From Candidatus Liptonbacteria bacterium (GTDB lineage: Bacteria > Patescibacteriota > Minisyncoccia > UBA6257 > 2-01-FULL-56-20), in contig JACPLI010000020.1 in assembly GCA_016186635.1 (NCBI GenBank), positions 3,548-67,547 of the forward strand: DNA of 64,000 nucleotides. The letters are read 5' to 3'. The notes beneath the pieces are model-generated. The model was not told the origin of the DNA. It was given only the letters and a program-made list of their open reading frames with translations, and made no database searches. A program made the translations under genes and the position numbers. Positions 3,803-44,394 of this stretch are shown here, piece after piece; within the stretch, counting starts at the first letter, position 1; every line of letters starts with the position of its first letter.

Positions 3803-3998
3803 TATGCATACGCTCGTCTATACAATCCCGCTCCGCCAGCCGGCGGACAGCGGGACCTCATAGAAGCAGTTCTTTGGGAAGAGGAGTAATCGCTCGTACC
3901 GCGAATGAAGGCAAATCTGCCTGTCGGTAGGCAAATAACGCAAGTAGGATTCGCATTATTGAATCCAAATTCGCATTATTCGCGAATACTCCCTATAT

Positions 3999-16820: not shown

Positions 16821-17311
16821 CTACATTTGTTCCAAAGCCGGGGCAAGTTGATTACACGCACGCTGCGCGCGCGCCAGTCATCAATTGTGTGGTAGAGCAT
16901 GATGGAAAAATTCTGCTTGTAAAGCGGAGCAGGAAACTCAATTTGCATCCGGGAGTATGGAATGGCGTGAGCGGGTTCCTTGACGACGGGAAAAGTCCGA
17001 TGGAGAAGGCGAAGGAGGAACTTCTCGAGGAAGCGGGCATTTCACCGGAGCAGATTATCTCCATGGAGGAGGGAAAGGTTTTTGAGGTGAGAGATGGGGC
17101 ATACGGCAAGACGTGGGTGACGCACCCCGTGCATGTGAAAGTGGCTACCGATGCGGTGAAGCTTGATTGGGAAGCGGAGGAGTATCGGTGGGTTGCGCCT
17201 GCGGAGATAAAAGGATTGGCGCTTACCCCGGGGTTTCTGAACGTATTGGACCAATTCTTCGGCAAAACAGCACACCTGTCATCCCCGCGCACGCGGGGAT
17301 CCATGCCCTAG
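16817..17311 (+). CDS. NUDIX hydrolase
   Basis: ILLVKRS and SG.....A.EEL.EEAG Nudix box; C-terminus runs into a palindromic repeat. Confidence 0.85.
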   Translation: MTTFVPKPGQVDYTHAARAPVINCVVEHDGKILLVKRSRKLNLHPGVWNGVSGFLDDGKSPMEKAKEELLEEAGISPEQIISMEEGKVFEVRDGAYGKTWVTHPVHVKVATDAVKLDWEAEEYRWVAPAEIKGLALTPGFLNVLDQFFGKTAHLSSPRTRGSMP

Positions 17312-17442
17312 ATTCCCGCTGGAGCCTGCCCTCGACTACGATCGGGGGCGGAAATGACAAGCATGCATCATGGTGTGAAGGGATAGCTGTGGATAACTCC
17401 GCTTGACGCCCTTTTGTGTGGTGCTACTATTCAAATATTCGT

Positions 17443-17766
17443 ATGAATATTGTAATAGATAAAGCAGCGCGTGGTGCAGCAATGTCAGCGCCCGCGCTCC
17501 TCAAAAAGTCCCGTCTTCTCGCACTCGCGGGGGACCCAACGCGGGTCAAAATCTTTTGCTTTATGTTTGAGCGCAAGGAGGGATGCGTGTCGGATGTCGC
17601 CGCGGCGCTCCGGATGAGCATCTCAAGCGTGTCGCACCATCTTCGGCTTATGCGCGATAACGGTCTCCTTACCGCGCACCGGATGGGTAACAACATCTGT
17701 TATCACCTTGTGCGCAATTCGTTTACCAAAGCGCTTGAGGAGTTGATTTGCAAAGTAAAGGTCTAA
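17443..17766 (+). CDS. ArsR/SmtB family regulator
   Basis: ALAGDPTR, CV, SSVSHHL motifs. Confidence 0.9.
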   Translation: MNIVIDKAARGAAMSAPALLKKSRLLALAGDPTRVKIFCFMFERKEGCVSDVAAALRMSISSVSHHLRLMRDNGLLTAHRMGNNICYHLVRNSFTKALEELICKVKV

Positions 17767-17785
17767 TACACAAAGAAATAAAACC

Positions 17786-18022
17786 ATGTCACACATTACC
17801 ATTTACACCACCCCCGGATGTGTTTATTGCAAGATGACTAAGGCATTCTTAAAGGAGCATAACATCAGCTATGACGAGAAAGACGTTTCGGCGGATGCGG
17901 CGGCGCGCGATGAGATGGTGGCAAAGTCCCAGCAAATGGGCGTGCCCGTCGTTGACATTGACGGCGCAATCGTTGTCGGTTTCGACAAGACGCGGCTTTC
18001 AGAACTACTCCACTTGCAATAA
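17786..18022 (+). CDS. Glutaredoxin-like (NrdH/YruB type) protein
   Basis: CVYC, GVPV and VGFD motifs. Confidence 0.92.
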   Translation: MSHITIYTTPGCVYCKMTKAFLKEHNISYDEKDVSADAAARDEMVAKSQQMGVPVVDIDGAIVVGFDKTRLSELLHLQ

Positions 18023-18025
18023 CTC

Positions 18026-18556
18026 ATGAGTACGAAAGCCATAGTCGGAGGAATTGCGCTTCTTGCAGTTGCCTTGCTTGTGGCAGGTGGCTTGAACAGC
18101 ACTTCGGTGCCCGCCAGTCCCTCTCTTCAAAGCGCCTCTCTTCAAAGCGTTGTGCGGAATGGCAACGTTCCCGATTTCAGTTTAGAGAAGTTAGACGGGG
18201 GCACTATCACGCTCTCCGAGTTCAGCGGCAAAAAGCCGGTGGTGGTGGATTTCTGGGCTTCATGGTGCCCGAACTGCCGCCGCGATATGCCCCGCCTCAA
18301 TGGTTTCTACGAGAAATACAAGGACAAGGTTGCAGTCGTCGGCGTGAATTTGCAGGAGAGCGCATCGACCGTACGGGATTTTATTGCATCCCGCGGCATT
18401 TCTTTCCCTATAGCGCTCGACCCGTATGGACAAGCATCGAATGCGTTCGGCGTTCGTTCCACCAACACGCATGTGCTCATACACAAAGACGGCACTGTGG
18501 CGCGCACCATTCCCGGCGACATACAGGAGTCGGATATCCTCTCTCTCATTGAGTAG
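18026..18556 (+). CDS. TlpA/ResA-like thiol-disulfide oxidoreductase
   Basis: N-terminal anchor, FWASWCPNC. Confidence 0.92.
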   Translation: MSTKAIVGGIALLAVALLVAGGLNSTSVPASPSLQSASLQSVVRNGNVPDFSLEKLDGGTITLSEFSGKKPVVVDFWASWCPNCRRDMPRLNGFYEKYKDKVAVVGVNLQESASTVRDFIASRGISFPIALDPYGQASNAFGVRSTNTHVLIHKDGTVARTIPGDIQESDILSLIE

Positions 18557-18561
18557 CTTTC

Positions 18562-19599
18562 ATGCAATCATCCAAAACAGTCATTACGTTCGGCATTTTT
18601 GCACTCGCCATACTCGCGGCGTTTGCGCTACTGCGCGGGACGTCAAAGAACGATGTTGCCCCACCTCGGGGTGCGGAAATTACAGAAAGAACGAATACGG
18701 TGAGCGGCGCGTCACGTTCTTTATCGGAGCGAGAAATTACGGTGACAAACGGTGTGAAACGCAGCATTTCCCTCGATGAAATCATCGGTGGCGGACCGCC
18801 GCAGGACGGGATTCCTCCGATTGACCATCCGAAGTTTGTTCCGGCGGCACAATCCTTGTTCCTCACGGATACCGACCCCGGCATCGCGCTTTCGATTGAC
18901 GGGGCGGAGCGGTTCTACCCGTTTCAGATTCTGGTCTGGCATGAGATTGTGAACGACACCGTGAATGGCCAGCGTGTACTCGTCACCTATTGTCCATTGT
19001 GTCTCTCTGGAATCGTGTTTGACCCCGTTGTCAAAGGCGAGCAGGTCGAGTTCGGCACTTCCGGCAAGTTGTGGAATTCAAATTTAGTGATGTATGACCG
19101 CAAAACCGATTCGTTGTGGTCGCAGATCTTGGGAGAAGCAATCGTGGGAGAAATGACCGGCACGCGACTTGAAGTTTTGCCGTCAGACCAGATTCGATTC
19201 GGCGACTGGCGGAAATCTCATCCGAGCGGCGAGGTTCTGTCGCGCGATACGGGAGCCACAAGATTTTATGGGCGAGACCCCTACGGCGACTACTACACGA
19301 AACCCGGCACATATTTCCCGGTCAGCAAGAAAGACAGCCGCTTGGGCGAAAAAGAGTTTATTTTGGGAATAGTAGTGAACGGCAAGGCCAAAGCGTACTG
19401 GCCGCCAGCCGTCAAAAAATCGGGAAGGGTTGAGGATGTGCTTCAAGGAAAAACTATTGTTGCGGAGTACGAAAAAGATATTGACGCGGTGCGTCTTTTT
19501 GAGAAGAAAAGCGACGGGGAGCTTATTCGCATCAATCCGTTCGGCTCGTTCTGGTTTTCGTGGGTGGCGGCGCATCAGGAAACTGAATTATTCAAATAG
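18562..19599 (+). CDS. DUF3179 family protein
   Basis: GGPP.DGIP, WHEIVND, TYCPLC, MYDR.T.SLWSQ and FWFSW motifs. Confidence 0.88.
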   Translation: MQSSKTVITFGIFALAILAAFALLRGTSKNDVAPPRGAEITERTNTVSGASRSLSEREITVTNGVKRSISLDEIIGGGPPQDGIPPIDHPKFVPAAQSLFLTDTDPGIALSIDGAERFYPFQILVWHEIVNDTVNGQRVLVTYCPLCLSGIVFDPVVKGEQVEFGTSGKLWNSNLVMYDRKTDSLWSQILGEAIVGEMTGTRLEVLPSDQIRFGDWRKSHPSGEVLSRDTGATRFYGRDPYGDYYTKPGTYFPVSKKDSRLGEKEFILGIVVNGKAKAYWPPAVKKSGRVEDVLQGKTIVAEYEKDIDAVRLFEKKSDGELIRINPFGSFWFSWVAAHQETELFK

Positions 19600-19609
19600 T
19601 AAAAATAAC

Positions 19610-19831
19610 ATGAATAGTGATGAGCAAAATATGAATGAATCTAGCGAAAATCAGCCCTATAAAGTGGGAAGTATAGTACCAGAAGACGGATGGTATGCTT
19701 GTGTTCCCTGCGGTAACAGAAAATATCTCAAAGCAGGGACACGTTTCGGAAGTTGCTTAATGTGTTTTGGTAAAGAGAAGAAAGAATTTCGCAAAGGATT
19801 TGAACTTTGGGAAAAGTTGGAATCAAAATAG
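19610..19831 (+). CDS. Small zinc-ribbon protein
   Basis: G.Y.CxxCG...CxxC in a 73-aa ORF from ATG 19610. Confidence 0.65.
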   Translation: MNSDEQNMNESSENQPYKVGSIVPEDGWYACVPCGNRKYLKAGTRFGSCLMCFGKEKKEFRKGFELWEKLESK

Positions 19832-19840
19832 GCAATCAAT

Positions 19841-20971
19841 ATGAAAATTATGAAAGACACATTTGGTCCGGAATATATTGTCAGGGTATATAATCCCAAG
19901 GTTGGCATGGAGGGATTTTTGGTCATTGATACTACCACACTTGGACCCGGTAAGGGCGGCATTCGGATGACTCCAAATGTAACGGAAGAAGAAGTGCGGA
20001 GACTGGCTCGGGCGATGACCTGGAAAAATGCTCTGGCGGGCATTCCTTTTGGCGGAGCAAAAGCTGGAATTATCTGGCCGGGTGGATCAGATGAGCTAAA
20101 AAGGAAATATGTTCAGAGCTTTGCCCGCGCAATCAAGTTATTTACGCCGCGAAAGTATATTGGCGGGCCAGATGTGAATACGGGCGAAAAAGAAATGCAG
20201 TGGTTTGTGGAGGAAACAGGCAATTGGCGCTCCGTTACCGGCAAGCCTGCCACTCTCTGTATGAAATTATTTGGAAGGACGGGCGAGAAATGCGGTATTC
20301 CTCACGAATTCGGGAGTACCGGTTTTGGCGTAGCTCAAGCCGTTTTAGAAACGGCACAAGCTCTTGCTATTGGTATTCGTGGGGCTCGTGTGGCGATTCA
20401 CGGTTTTGGAAATGTCGGCACGTTCACCTATACTTATCTGCATCGCGCAGGAGCCAAAATTGTTGCTATTGCGGACAGTAGCGGCGCGATTTTTAGCGAT
20501 GCTGGGTTAGATGATGCTGAGGTGCAGGAAGTTATAAAAAAGAAACAACACATCTCTGAATGTAAAGGGTGCCGCAAGATTTCGAGTGAAGATTTTTGGA
20601 AGGTACCTGTTGATTTTCTCATTCCCGCCTCAGTTACGGATGTCATCAACGAAACGAATAAAAATGGTATCCGCGCCAAAGCAATTATTGAAGCGGGAAA
20701 TATTCCTATGAGAGAAAACATAGAAGAAGAGTTGTCTAAAAAAGGCATTGTTATAGTTCCAGATTTTGTGGCAAATGCGGGCGGGGTTATCTCCTCGTAT
20801 GCGGAATATCGCGGCTATAATCCTAAAAGAATGTTTGCACTTGTGGAGAGAAAAATTAGAAATAGCACTCGCCTCGTTTTGGAACAAAGTATAAAATTGA
20901 AGAAAAATCCTCGTGAAATCGCTTTGGCAATCGCCAAAGAAAAGGTCGAGGCGGAGATGAGTAAAAAATAA
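19841..20971 (+). CDS. Glu/Leu/Phe/Val dehydrogenase
   Basis: GKGGIR, MTWK, GGAK, PDVNT, GFGNVG and PDFVANAGGV motifs. Confidence 0.95.
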   Translation: MKIMKDTFGPEYIVRVYNPKVGMEGFLVIDTTTLGPGKGGIRMTPNVTEEEVRRLARAMTWKNALAGIPFGGAKAGIIWPGGSDELKRKYVQSFARAIKLFTPRKYIGGPDVNTGEKEMQWFVEETGNWRSVTGKPATLCMKLFGRTGEKCGIPHEFGSTGFGVAQAVLETAQALAIGIRGARVAIHGFGNVGTFTYTYLHRAGAKIVAIADSSGAIFSDAGLDDAEVQEVIKKKQHISECKGCRKISSEDFWKVPVDFLIPASVTDVINETNKNGIRAKAIIEAGNIPMRENIEEELSKKGIVIVPDFVANAGGVISSYAEYRGYNPKRMFALVERKIRNSTRLVLEQSIKLKKNPREIALAIAKEKVEAEMSKK

Positions 20972-39778: not shown

Positions 39779-40447
39779 TTACTTCAACCCCAAGATATTT
39801 TTAGCAATGGCCGGCACCTCGCGGCGGAAATATGCCTTTATTTCTCCCCACGTCGCCTTAAAGAAAAGGGTTGGCATAGGGTCGTCTTCCGCCTCCGTAA
39901 AATAAGTTAAGCTTTTGATGAAGTGCGGGAAGTTCAGATTTTTTGTTGGATAGTGTTCTTGCACGCGAGAGAGAATGTCGCAAAGCGGCTCCCGATTTTT
40001 GACATACCAGTACAGGTCAACAAAATCGCGCTTGCGGCAACGCTGACTGATTGCAATAATCTTCATCACCGCAATATCTTCCGGAGGAAGGATTTTAACG
40101 GTGCCGAAACGCGTGAATGTTCCTGAAGCGACGAAAAAGGGATAGGCGATAAAACTCGCTTTTGCTCCCGCATACTCTCCGTATAATGTGCCGGCGGTTG
40201 CCGATGTTGTGTTCCAATCGCCAGTTTTGAGAAGTACCCCTTCGAGCGCAAGCCGGTCAAACTCGGCTTCCGGCGTGAAAAAATCCAAATCAACGGACTG
40301 GCGATGTCCGACTTGCAGCGCGAGCGCCGTGCCCCCCGCGAGATACCAGCCGCCTCCGCGAAAAAGCGGCATCTTTGAGAATGTTTCAAGCGCGTGCTTG
40401 GTGTCCGCAGGCAATGCCTCAAAATGGAATCCATCAACTTGTTGCAT
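39779..40447 (-). CDS. AbiEii/AbiGii-type nucleotidyltransferase toxin
   Basis: YLAGGTALAL..GHR.S.DLDFF and K...R...RDF.D motifs. Confidence 0.9.
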   Translation of the reverse strand: MQQVDGFHFEALPADTKHALETFSKMPLFRGGGWYLAGGTALALQVGHRQSVDLDFFTPEAEFDRLALEGVLLKTGDWNTTSATAGTLYGEYAGAKASFIAYPFFVASGTFTRFGTVKILPPEDIAVMKIIAISQRCRKRDFVDLYWYVKNREPLCDILSRVQEHYPTKNLNFPHFIKSLTYFTEAEDDPMPTLFFKATWGEIKAYFRREVPAIAKNILGLK

Positions 40448-40464
40448 GGTGTGCGGTACCGTTA

Positions 40465-40719
40465 TCAAGCAAACACAAGTTTCCACAATGCTCGCGATTG
40501 CGGCTGCAGCACGCGAGAGGTGAGCACTACCTTCTTGATGAGCGACTTGGGATAATACGCCGCCATCCATCGCAACTCGTCGTCTCTTCCGAAATCCAGA
40601 ATCCGCTCAATCACATAGACCGCGTGTTTCTTCGGGTCAATCGTCTTCGGGTCAACGTCCCAAAAAAGCGATTGCCGAAATCGCATTGCGGGCGTGGCGC
40701 TTTTTTTCGCGACCTTCAT
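40465..40719 (-). CDS. DUF6922-like small partner protein (antitoxin candidate)
   Basis: LFWDVD and YVIERIL.FG motifs, upstream of the AbiEii gene. Confidence 0.8.
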   Translation of the reverse strand: MKVAKKSATPAMRFRQSLFWDVDPKTIDPKKHAVYVIERILDFGRDDELRWMAAYYPKSLIKKVVLTSRVLQPQSRALWKLVFA

Positions 40720-40868
40720 GTGTCGCCTATATTTTAGCATTTTTTACTCATTCTTTCTAATTTATTTCTCTCGGTTTTTTTGTTGCTCCGGATTCCGAAG
40801 TTGGACTTCCGGGAGGAAGGATTGTGATTGTACTTTCTTCCCTCTGATTGAGAAGCCGGAAGCGGGAT

Positions 40869-41300
40869 TTATTTTTCTTTTCCGACGAATGCGCGCACCT
40901 GCCGCGTATATTCCCCAAAATCGCCGTAGTTTTTCTTCGTATTTCGCACAAAGAGAGCCCTATCCAGTTTTTCGTATTGGTGCACAATCATGTTTCGCAC
41001 GCCGACAATCGGAGCTATTGTGAACGCAAAGTTTTTCTCTATCACATTCATCTCGCCAAGCAAGCGGAAGGTGCCCTCCAAATCGTCCGGCGCGCCAAGG
41101 TGTTTTTCCTTGATGATGTGCCGGTTGATATCTATCATGGCGTCAACTGCGAGCTGAAAAACCCGCTCAAGCGCGTGATATTTAACACTATCTTTCAAAA
41201 TATCGTCGTCCGAGAACTCGGCAACAAAGGGCTTTATTTCTCCCACATAACCTGCCAGCAGATGCAGCTTTTTCTCCACAAGCGCAAAATCGAGCGTCAT
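40869..41300 (-). CDS. HEPN/DUF86 (HepT-like) toxin
   Basis: RNMIVHQY (RX4H) motif. Confidence 0.9.
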   Translation of the reverse strand: MTLDFALVEKKLHLLAGYVGEIKPFVAEFSDDDILKDSVKYHALERVFQLAVDAMIDINRHIIKEKHLGAPDDLEGTFRLLGEMNVIEKNFAFTIAPIVGVRNMIVHQYEKLDRALFVRNTKKNYGDFGEYTRQVRAFVGKEK

Positions 41301-41698
41301 AGTTTTGAAAGCGTGTAATCAAGGAAATCCCTTCGCAGTTCAAACAATATTTCTGCATCATCGTAGTTCCGGAGCGCATATAAATATGCCTCGTTAAAAA
41401 GCGATTGACTTCGCTCATACAGCACCACCGCATTCGTCACGATCTGCTTCGCGAGAAGCGGGGGCGCAGTTTTCAGATTCACGAGCGACACCTTGTCGTT
41501 CCGAAAAACCTCCGTCAGGTCGAAATTCAAAAGCACCTCATCGTCAAACGAGAGTTTTTTGTCCGCGAGATATGCCACGTCCACATCGCTTTCCTTGTGC
41601 GTCTGCCCTGTTGCCTGCGAGCCGAAAAGCACGACCAACGAAAGGCCGTATTTCTCGGCAAGCGCGGCGATATGGGGTTGTGTTGATGCAATATTCAT
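41297..41698 (-). CDS. MNT (MntA-like) antitoxin
   Basis: LFGS.A.G...SDVD motif; overlaps the HEPN start. Confidence 0.9.
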   Translation of the reverse strand: MNIASTQPHIAALAEKYGLSLVVLFGSQATGQTHKESDVDVAYLADKKLSFDDEVLLNFDLTEVFRNDKVSLVNLKTAPPLLAKQIVTNAVVLYERSQSLFNEAYLYALRNYDDAEILFELRRDFLDYTLSKL

Positions 41699-41792: not shown

Positions 41793-41822
41793 TTGACAAG
41801 ATAGCATAAAGTATGCTATATT
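41793..41822 (+). promoter_or_regulatory. Sigma70-type promoter overlapped by a palindromic operator
   Basis: TTGACA (41793), TGcTATATT, inverted repeat ATAGCATA-AAG-TATGCTAT (41801-41819). Confidence 0.7.
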
Positions 41823-41859
41823 TACACCGTTATTTTGCAGTTCTTTCACACAGCAAAAT

Positions 41860-42348
41860 CGTTTGAACCCCGTTGTTGTACGAGAATAGCACCATGCTAG
41901 TCACTAAGTCCTAATGGCTAAGTTCTAGTGGCTGTCATTGAGCTATTCTCGTGTGAGCGTAGCCAGTATCTTCGCCTCCTGTCTCTTTTGAGAGAATGGA
42001 CGAACGGTATCGCGCTACCGCAACAGCGCATCTCCATTTCCGATGACCTCAGTGGACCGCTGGGTTCGAAACTCGGGCAATGCCCGAGTAATGGTGCAGT
42101 GGGATGATCAAACTGGAAGGGTTCCAGCACTCATCCTTTCCACCCATTACCATGGGGATGGTGGCGGGCAGGATGCCCGCTTCGTGCGGATTCAGATTGG
42201 AAAACCCCTCTATTTTTCGCCCGCAATGTAAAAATGTGCGGGCACGCCGAAAGGCAATGGAGACGACTGAATCCTGTAGATTCGGTCAGGTGGAGCCCTG
42301 AGCTACGTCGAAGGGCTCCACCAATCTCTACTGTTCTCGGTTCCAACG
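41860..42348 (+). ncRNA. Large multi-domain structured RNA candidate, family not recognised
   Basis: Closing stem CGTTTGAACC/GGTTCCAACG with many nested internal helices; follows a promoter and a boxA-like motif. Confidence 0.65.
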
Positions 42349-42394
42349 AGGGAGTTACATTTCTTCCTAAAAATAAAAAATTGAAAACATTGAT

Positions 42395-42468
42395 GGGGCG
42401 AAAGAGTCAAAAACTCAATCGCCCCGCTCAATTGAGTCCATAAGCGAAAGTTTGTGGATTCATAGAGC
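42395..42468 (+). repeat. RNA-motif repeat copy 1 (invariant TCGCCCCGCTCAATTGAGTCC)
   Basis: 21-mer at 42419-42439 with variable hairpins on both sides. Confidence 0.85.
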
Positions 42469-42667
42469 AAGCAGTTCTTTCAAATCAATAAAATTGGAAT
42501 CTGGAAGAATTCGTTGCTGCACTTGTAGGAAGCGCAAAGATTATCAAAATAGTTTTTGCGCTTCCTATGAGGAACGCAGGCGATATCGGCGGGCCGCAAA
42601 CATGCCGATAAACTTCACGCCCACTGGAAAGGCGCTATGCCAAGTCCTACGGGCACGAGGAGATAGT

Positions 42668-43429
42668 ATGGAAAATAACCAGCAGAATCAGTCGTATCGG
42701 GTATTCACCATCAATTCCGGGAGCATCACCGAAGGCGCGCCGGTTCAGATGGTGAAAATCGCGCAAGGGACAGTTGAGATTTTCGCGGTCACGGTCGGGG
42801 AGAGTGGCCGTGGGCGCCAACTCGGTATGGTCCCGGTGGACCGGCCGCCGCACACGGCTTGCTCGAACCGGAATCGAGAAATGTCCGGCGAAAAGTGCGA
42901 CAAATGCGGTGTCGCGCTTGAGAATGGCAAGCACCCGGACAAAGGAGAGGTGCCGGGGCGGCTCATGTTCGCGGAGTTGGGGCAGACAAAGTCCGGGAAA
43001 CCCAAACTTTTCTCGAAACCGTCGGCGACTTCGGATGAAAAGGTCATCGCTGTTTTCAGTACGATGATTGGTTTCCGGGGCGGCAATTCGCATACCGGAG
43101 ACCGCGCGGGGTGGACTTGTTCGTGCGGTGAGTCTGCTGACACCGCCAGGCCGGAAAAGTGCCCCAAGTGCGGTGGGACTGAAGGTCTGAAGAATAAATT
43201 CGCGCAGTTTCCTGGTGAGATTATCTGCCAGGGTACCATCGCCGAAGGAGACGCGGGGCGGATGGGGAGCGGCGAGCAGCTCGTCGCGTTCATGCCGAAG
43301 GATGTGGTTTTCCGAACATCCTACTCGGGGCGGCTCTATGGGAAGCCGGGTGCCCACTATTACAAGTGGACTGGCGAGAAATTCCTCGCCGCCACGTGGG
43401 AAGATCGGTCGGCGGCGGATCTGTTCTAG
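42668..43429 (+). CDS. Orphan protein with two zinc-ribbon-like inserts
   Basis: GAGGAG ribosome site, ATG 42668, CDKCG and CSCG...CPKCG. Confidence 0.8.
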   Translation: MENNQQNQSYRVFTINSGSITEGAPVQMVKIAQGTVEIFAVTVGESGRGRQLGMVPVDRPPHTACSNRNREMSGEKCDKCGVALENGKHPDKGEVPGRLMFAELGQTKSGKPKLFSKPSATSDEKVIAVFSTMIGFRGGNSHTGDRAGWTCSCGESADTARPEKCPKCGGTEGLKNKFAQFPGEIICQGTIAEGDAGRMGSGEQLVAFMPKDVVFRTSYSGRLYGKPGAHYYKWTGEKFLAATWEDRSAADLF

Positions 43430-43480
43430 GTTCCAATCGGGAGAAGGAAAACTTCCTAAAAACAAACCAAAAAACATTTA

Positions 43481-43563
43481 GCGGGCGATTGGGAAAACCT
43501 GATCGCCCCGCTCAATTGAGTCCGTCGCGCCGTGAGTACGGAATGCGGTGGCCTCAACAGAGT
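43481..43563 (+). repeat. RNA-motif repeat copy 2
   Basis: 21-mer at 43503-43523. Confidence 0.85.
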
Positions 43564-43583
43564 GGTTGCTACTTTACAACTTT

Positions 43584-43916
43584 ATGAAAAGAATAATCGT
43601 CCAAAAGGCGACGGATTTCTGGCCAACCTACGACCCTAAGAAATGGGTTGCCTTCGAGGAGGGGAAAAACCCATCGGAGGGGAGTACGGGCAGTACTTTT
43701 GGGTTGGCGGCCATGGCGCTCGCTGCGAACGTGGCCGATGAGAGCGAAATACCGCCGATGCAGGTACGCATCACGGTAACGCTCAATCGGCCAAGGGATG
43801 CGGTACTCATGGTTTGGAAGTTTTTCCTCGCTTTTCTGAAGCTGCTATTTGGGGAAAAGCAGATTCGGATAAGTATGGATCCCTTGTCGATGTTTGTCGA
43901 CAAGGTACAGCGTTGA
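43584..43916 (+). CDS. Small orphan protein
   Basis: ORF filling the space between repeat copies 2 and 3. Confidence 0.6.
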   Translation: MKRIIVQKATDFWPTYDPKKWVAFEEGKNPSEGSTGSTFGLAAMALAANVADESEIPPMQVRITVTLNRPRDAVLMVWKFFLAFLKLLFGEKQIRISMDPLSMFVDKVQR

Positions 43917-43923
43917 AATTTTT

Positions 43924-44000
43924 GCGGGCGAGTGGTTCTATTCCATTCGCCCCGCTCAATTGAGTCCGAGAGTGAAAGATTCTCGCGAGCTGAACAGAGC
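43924..44000 (+). repeat. RNA-motif repeat copy 3
   Basis: 21-mer at 43947-43967. Confidence 0.85.
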
Positions 44001-44038
44001 GATTTAAAAATAAAAACGTGAAAGGAGGTGAAAAGCAA

Positions 44039-44302
44039 ATGCTGAAAATCCCGAAAAACGGGGCGGAAATCCAAACGGTCAAAGGGATACAATATCTCGT
44101 TGCCCGGCTGGATGCGCAGAAAACCTGCGCGGACTACCTGAACGCGCTTCGGAGAGGAGAGACCGTGGTTGTGCCGCTTTCAAAAAGGACACATCTCACG
44201 GGGCTTCTTAAGAGGGAATCCATTTTTACTCGGCAAAAGACACTTGTTGCCGGGAAATGGATCTCTTTCACTCCGTGTGAAGAAAGGGAGTTCAAGCCTT
44301 AA
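44039..44302 (+). CDS. Small basic orphan protein
   Basis: Strong AAAGGAGGTG Shine-Dalgarno before ATG 44039. Confidence 0.7.
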   Translation: MLKIPKNGAEIQTVKGIQYLVARLDAQKTCADYLNALRRGETVVVPLSKRTHLTGLLKRESIFTRQKTLVAGKWISFTPCEEREFKP

Positions 44303-44362
44303 CTGCGGCTTTGGCACGCGGGGCAGAGCGACTGCCTGGCAACGGAATTGTCGCAAAAATTT

Positions 44363-44394
44363 GGAGGTGCAAAAACGCACCTCCTTTTGCTTTT
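44363..44394 (+). terminator. Intrinsic terminator closing the ncRNA/orphan unit
   Basis: GGAGGTGC-AAAAAC-GCACCTCC followed by T runs. Confidence 0.8.

Follow-up and report, generated by a model that had tools for sequence, protein, structure and literature searches.

What holds together four small genes that are unrelated to one another, lie behind one promoter and are separated by repeated RNA structures? The question is raised by positions 41793 to 44394 of the window (the whole 64,000-nucleotide stretch of DNA that was analysed), which belongs to a host genome (G000) of 921 kb and 97.85% completeness. The array is flanked by two toxin-antitoxin pairs (AbiEii/DUF6922 and HepT/nucleotidyltransferase) on one side and by uvrC on the other. 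The two pairs lie on the minus strand at 39779-41698, between uvrA and the array, and are missing from that place in a sister genome (G081).

A Patescibacteria genus carries cassette arrays of this kind, and the one here holds four cargo genes that are mutually unrelated. A conserved folded RNA wraps or precedes each of the four accessory genes; in relatives the wrappers are kept and the genes differ. We hold this architecture, taken apart from any function, with high confidence. The features of the array are as follows.

41793..41822, plus strand: sigma70-type promoter with extended −10 (TTGACA-N18-TATATT, 11 of 12 consensus matches)
41802..41818, no strand: 17-bp palindrome between −35 and −10, candidate operator
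41837..41846, plus strand: boxA-like motif 1
41859..41869, plus strand: 5′ arm of the cassette 1 outer stem, pairing with 42339-42349
41880..42042, plus strand: 5′ half of frame A, with a long hairpin, an inner hairpin, a possible pseudoknot and an arm (42031-42038) just before the ATG; z −4.5
42043..42231, plus strand: cargo 1, 62-aa ORF
42238..42330, plus strand: 3′ half of frame A, with a GNRA hairpin, an arm (42256-42263) complementary to 42031-42038, and two hairpins; z −5.0
42331..42392, plus strand: tail 1, with the outer-stem 3′ arm, a small hairpin and an A-tract
42395..42468, plus strand: separator 1, hairpin H1 and internal-loop hairpin H2
42471..42480, plus strand: boxA-like motif 2
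42493..42525, plus strand: 5′ arm of the cassette 2 outer stem, pairing with about 43407-43437, last ORF codons included
42522..42571, plus strand: long hairpin; an ATG in its 3′ foot opens 14 codons only
42668..43429, plus strand: cargo 2, 253-aa ORF
43430..43480, plus strand: tail 2, with the outer-stem 3′ arm, a small hairpin and an A-tract
43483..43563, plus strand: separator 2 (H1 and H2)
43584..43916, plus strand: cargo 3, 110-aa orphan ORF in strongly folded RNA
43926..44000, plus strand: separator 3 (H1 and H2)
44039..44302, plus strand: cargo 4, 87-aa ORF with Shine-Dalgarno-like AGGAGG
44363..44394, plus strand: intrinsic-terminator-like hairpin (44363-44384) and T-run

An earlier note on this DNA had claimed a promoter and a terminator, and both are present, at 41793-41822 and 44363-44384. 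Similar promoters head the arrays of relatives. The palindrome is perfect over its 17 bp and overlaps the promoter, whose extended −10 region makes up its right half. It may be an operator that renders the array repressible, as the earlier note proposed, and a LexA box is one candidate identity for it. A near-copy in reversed orientation occurs at one of 40 other promoter-like sites in the genome (G000:C3:5767-5783); five related promoters keep part of the palindrome, and seven others that were read lack it. The promoter with the near-copy precedes a secreted-looking orphan gene that adjoins a tRNA. The tail shared by the first two cargoes, also described in the earlier note, has two copies in the genome, both within the array. 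The hairpin at 42522-42571 is probably a left-over start-codon hairpin.

Frame A and the cargo genes

The first cargo had been read as a structured RNA of about 490 nt. The region (41847-42360) does fold strongly (z −7.9 for 41840-42450), yet it contains a 62-codon gene, and the apparent large noncoding RNA is a small ORF, cargo 1, within a conserved RNA frame. Cargo 1 has a homolog of 93 aa (P0122; 51% identical, E 1.2e-6), and a separate homolog search with it gave no match. In relatives, six other, mutually unrelated ORFs of 161 to 252 aa stand in register in frame A. The ATG lies 2 to 9 nt past the 5′ arm and the stop 21 to 49 nt ahead of the 3′ arm in all seven frame-A cassettes examined; shuffled inserts gave the same register 0 or 1 times in 2000 for six cassettes and 39 times in 2000 for the window cassette. 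The frame-A arms are complementary over 8 to 12 bp, from which we infer an inner helix that barely varies and has a pair probability of 0 to 0.3 in six of seven whole-cassette folds. For genomes of this kind the case is a warning that what looks like a large noncoding RNA may prove to be a small gene in its frame.

The 3′ motif of frame A was found in 5 of 125 family genomes, in 3 of 401 genomes of an order sample (all three inside the family) and on three metagenome contigs, and the 5′ pattern had 0 matches in viral contigs. Loci L029 and L164 carry the 3′ motif, and no frame-A 5′ arm was found there. Because L029 combines the motif with a different 5′ frame, frame halves can be mixed. Two further groups with the 3′ motif (L054, L080 and L096; L092, L117 and L150) are single-copy and outside arrays, in surroundings that are conserved but different.

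The earlier note had proposed a modular array with exchangeable cargo, and a motif search combined with cargo comparison in relatives supports this: the scaffold is common and the cargo differs. Scaffold matches are present in all four other genomes of the genus, with more than one array per genome in relatives. An array precedes uvrC in G014, G060 and G081, as it does in G000, and none of the four shares cargo. Among 52 ORFs (some spurious) called in 15 array stretches there are only 3 homologous pairs. Three cargo pairs are common to genomes; two of these stand at different sites and positions, with the type of 5′ frame kept. Loci L036 and L111 have their 3′ frame and downstream genes in common and carry different cargo. 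Because their upstream parts differ too, the difference may be a rearrangement rather than a clean replacement. In G060:C109, two near-identical separator-tail repeats surround different ORFs. No cassette-skipping joint was found in the DNA contigs of four runs from one study.

Cargo 2 is beta-rich with two cysteine-pair inserts, was modelled confidently (pLDDT 95.8), and belongs to a family that also occurs in phages. It has 678 homologs, the named ones including Parcubacteria and Patescibacteria records. Homologs occur in two Pseudanabaena phages (GenBank) and at 25 viral loci, and a type II hammerhead scored above the Rfam cut-off at 2 of the 20 viral cargo-2 loci scanned. Within the order the gene is rare (4 of 401 genomes, three of them weak), and a single-protein locus search of genome contigs returned 3 matches, all at zinc-ribbon level. 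The model gave one weak viral structure match (E 4e-3) and none in the PDB (best Z 4.9). A weak cargo-2 homolog lies in an array of another family (G304:C3, about 17000-20400; L187 and L212) whose repeated spacer is of another kind and which also contains a type II hammerhead. On viral contigs L219, L220 and L223, cargo-2 homologs are flanked by repeats of a short hairpin that carries a ribosome-binding site, and Rfam gave no match there at gathering score.

A homolog search with cargo 3 returned the query alone, and its RNA folds strongly (z −6.9 and −4.0); cargo 4 had no Pfam or PHROG match. Among 27 cargos of the arrays scanned with Pfam, sigma-70 region 4 and RNA polymerase alpha-CTD scored over the cut-off, and sigma region 4, STIV B116-like and MltC_N matched weakly; PHROG gave weak matches for only 3 of 30 cargos. 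Start codons lie inside long hairpins at L018:2857, L026:3415, L028:5160 and 4470, L209:7044, 6358, 4571 and 3800, and L210:3930, and the 5′ arm of each hairpin matches the first codons of its own, different cargo. These hairpins are candidates for a translation switch or for leaderless mRNA made by RNase III.

Separators, boxA-like motifs and enclosing stems

The repeated RNA motif of the earlier note corresponds to three separators that are unique to the array within the 921-kb genome. All three genomic copies of the separator 20-mer lie in the array, its 14-mer core occurs 3 times against 0.011 expected in the genome, and the separators fold with z of −8.5, −4.9 and −6.0. A model built from 13 copies and run on 125 family genomes gave 21 matches in 7 of them. 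Those not seen before comprise four matches in a second array of G081, a single match in G072, another copy in G060:C109 and two weak ones. Putative R1 matches are present in G106 and G060:C5. In the H2 alignment, 90.2% of cells are paired and 5 of 11 pairs have changed on both sides, a level reached by 0 of 500 shuffles; the alignment shows the predicted H2 structure kept by compensatory change. The exact separator 20-mer had 0 matches in the viral and genome collections, and the array DNA had no match among GenBank phages. Two viral matches to the H2 pattern (L214 and L215) were rejected as chance, one lying in a coding region and the other lacking the flanking layout.

Decamer GCAGTTCTTT is present at 41837, at 42471 and at 3866 before tRNA-Tyr, as the earlier note had it. 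By itself it is unremarkable (9 genome copies against 4.4 expected). The decamer at 3866 stands 133 nt ahead of the tRNA and comes after a −10-like sequence and a hairpin, in that order, a placement that fits a boxA role. The likeness to boxA that had been proposed is supported by position: 29.7 kb of arrays hold 30 sense and 3 antisense matches to a boxA-like pattern, against 3.3 expected at the genome rate, counts that lean in favour of the motif since pattern and array limits were chosen from these same arrays, and that are not independent across arrays since the genomes are close kin. The 30 sense matches fall after a promoter (7), after H2 (14), after a hammerhead (4) or elsewhere (5); window separators 2 and 3 have no boxA-like match behind them.

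Rfam hammerhead matches, all below gathering score, were obtained in G060:C2 (E 5e-4), G081:C1 (1.5e-3) and G304:C3 (4.5e-3), and the cores of the hammerheads in sister arrays look intact. Neither Rfam nor a type III pattern found a hammerhead in the window, and the strict form of that pattern had no match in G000 as a whole. Only tRNA-Tyr reached gathering score when the window was compared with Rfam, and six further matches were at chance level (E above 1). A 6-kb array in G081:C1 (L209:2250-8390) contains at least three hammerheads and four separators, as well as a repeated further type of frame with little coding capacity; it is preceded by a regulator that we take to be TrmB-like. Read from sequence, separator and hammerhead fill one slot, because the boxA-like motif follows either. 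Since RNA 5′ ends arise at promoters and at hammerheads alike, H2 probably yields one as well.

One alternative, which we consider unlikely, is that H1-H2 or frame A cleaves itself, as a ribozyme not yet described, and that RNase III is not needed. Within these arrays H2 and the hammerheads take the same position ahead of the boxA-like motif, the placement of H1 recalls that of hammerhead stem I, both elements end in CAGAG- or TAGAG-like letters, and in frame A some bases look unpaired yet do not vary and a pseudoknot is possible. However, the conserved letters of H2 lie mostly in stems while its internal loop varies, no Rfam ribozyme match appeared up to E 10, and the window array is without a hammerhead core and its partner motif.

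Cutting by RNase III, the reading we favour, draws on the stems that enclose the cassettes. The earlier note had described a stem-enclosed ORF, and cargo 2 (42668-43429) indeed lies inside an outer stem of about 28 bp that forms in the whole-cassette minimum free energy fold (duplex z −5.4). The outer stem of cassette 1 has a duplex z of −4.1 and, when the whole cassette is folded, a pair probability of about 0.35. Of 10 outer-stem duplexes compared with shuffles, only those of the two window cassettes were clearly better, and the other 8 gave p of 0.055 to 0.8. The arms keep a TTGGAA:TTCCAA core, and their flanks change in compensating fashion. RNase III cuts rRNA-type stems, and NusB/NusE binds boxA. 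In the genus, the 23S processing stem contains ATTGGGAT:ATCCCAAT and the 16S processing stem contains GTTCCAAT:ATTGGAAC; the cassette stem core is the same as these or differs by one letter, a likeness of 7 to 8 bp that was spotted post hoc. G000 itself gave no 23S match. The neighbouring genes rnc and nusB are present in five of five genomes. Protein-coding inserts occur in or just behind rRNA genes at L177 (16S of G092) and L173 (3′ end of 23S of G081).

The same structures could instead control stability, translation or termination within a message that stays whole and uncut, which we think quite unlikely. Among 18 start sites folded, 8 have the ATG and the codons behind it within a long stem, the 5′ arm of which is matched to the cargo in each case. 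Moreover, cargo ORFs fold more strongly than neighbouring genes (mean z −1.69 over 82 folding windows versus −0.69 over 79, with z below −2 in 34 of 82 versus 13 of 79 windows that are not independent). An uncut message would nevertheless leave the hammerheads in the H2 slot and the rRNA-stem core unexplained. Processing into separate RNAs is indirectly supported by both, and we regard it as the better account of the scaffold.

A proposed route of expression and exchange

We propose, with moderate confidence, that the array is built in the manner of an rRNA operon, its antiterminated transcript being cut into single-gene RNAs and its cargo being swapped by recombination between frames. A single promoter would give one transcript that loads NusB/NusE at the boxA-like sites. 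RNase III would cut the long stems around the first two cassettes and probably H2, with its internal loop, as well, leaving separate, end-protected single-gene RNAs; in sister arrays, hammerheads would do the job in the H2 slot. The frames would set translation, either by ending at the ATG or by hiding it in a stem. Cargo may be drawn from a phage-like accessory pool and exchanged by homologous recombination between the repeated frames, without a dedicated recombinase.

A farther-reaching reading, which we regard as doubtful, is that Patescibacteria have a recombinase-free cassette platform on which any foreign gene is packaged to mimic pre-rRNA, with boxA, a host processing stem and an ORF-clamping frame. 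The separator or frame would then be a new class of self-cleaving RNA, interchangeable with the hammerhead, and would set every gene free on a separate RNA that may be circular.

It is improbable that the separators are instead DNA recombination sites, either attC-like or Y1/HUH hairpin ends, which a recombinase from another locus would use. One promoter followed by orphan ORFs with hairpin repeats in between does resemble an integron array, and Y1 genes are present in three of four relatives. Against this, the array is without attC core sites, and the G-U-type pairs, the substitution by hammerheads and the strand bias of the boxA-like motif point to RNA. Consistent with the earlier note, which had seen no integrase or reverse transcriptase, no reverse transcriptase and no Y1 match were found across G000, and its one integrase-family match (PF00589) is on another contig. 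Least probable of all is movement through an RNA stage, in which a reverse transcriptase acting in trans would copy a cassette RNA that had been excised and may be circular: the cassettes have ends paired in long stems, hammerheads in sister arrays and folded coding regions, and four of four relatives have reverse transcriptase genes, but none was found in G000, five of six such loci show template/variable repeat pairs differing mostly at adenine positions, as in diversity-generating retroelements, and none has adjoining frame motifs, the nearest frame-A motif lying 4.7 kb from one reverse transcriptase. We continue to favour homologous recombination between frames.

Comparison with known systems

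Several known elements were considered and set aside. The frame-A 3′ motif equals the last 19 letters of some CRISPR repeats, and 72 of 128 loci retrieved with it are regular arrays of 35- to 37-nt repeats; a CRISPR array or solitary repeat was rejected, as each cassette has a single copy, only the 3′ half matches and there are no spacers. No cas1 was found in G000, and cas6 (PF10040) was found in 0 of 5 genomes. A link to diversity-generating retroelements was rejected, with no reverse transcriptase found in G000 and no frame motifs beside the reverse transcriptase loci of relatives. Loci that resemble such retroelements, with a reverse transcriptase and repeat pairs, occur in four of four relatives (L164 and L245-L248). 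Likenesses to tmRNA, group I and II introns, HDV, twister and pistol had no Rfam support.

rRNA operons combine boxA and NusB-NusE with RNase III stems, and kindred cases are the ORF-bearing intervening sequences of 23S and the RNase III sites of the T7 early region. Like an rRNA operon, the array has a boxA-like motif after a predicted 5′ end; long stems around the products (strong in the two window cassettes, weak in 8 others) and a stem core would be further points in common. Like the T7 early sites, it has internal-loop hairpins between genes. What is enclosed differs from an rRNA operon: the products are protein genes, unrelated to one another, and they turn over from one sister species to the next. 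Integron arrays and CALINs have one promoter, repeated hairpin units and orphan cargo. The array resembles them in each respect, its cargo differing among relatives, and departs from them in having 0 attC core matches in 41793-44394, no adjacent integrase and signals that point to RNA.

PeSL cassettes of T4-type phages are described by Arbiol et al. (2010, PMC2839356) as repeated regulatory units between non-essential genes that act as recombination points for shuffling, which offers a model for cargo exchange here. PeSLs, as described there, are units of promoter and terminator, whereas the array has one promoter, one terminal terminator and repeats that are RNA frames. PeSL-type recombination between repeats is for this array a presumed step.

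The closest published case found is that of clustered hammerhead ribozymes, which flank single variable, mostly hypothetical genes in prophage regions (Perreault et al. 2011, PMC3088659). Shared with it are a polycistronic block of variable genes punctuated by RNA elements, hammerheads in the sister arrays, and a phage family near hammerheads to which cargo 2 belongs. Unlike the clusters as described there, the array has an uncatalogued two-hairpin separator, boxA-like sites and stems that enclose ORFs, and it lies among housekeeping genes with no integrase beside it. Because the window array is without a hammerhead, it is not a member of these clusters, though it appears to work alike.

In the literature searched (mostly open-access, main texts only), we found no description of such arrays in CPR. 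We conclude that the array is, by its sequence, a real and uncatalogued variant of ribozyme-punctuated accessory-gene clusters on an rRNA-like scaffold, with a predicted function. It suggests a testable answer to how bacteria with reduced genomes take in and express foreign genes without integrons, namely by reusing the machinery of rRNA antitermination and processing. Moreover, its RNA structures are uncatalogued and stand in the slot that hammerheads otherwise fill, which makes them direct candidates for cleavage assays.
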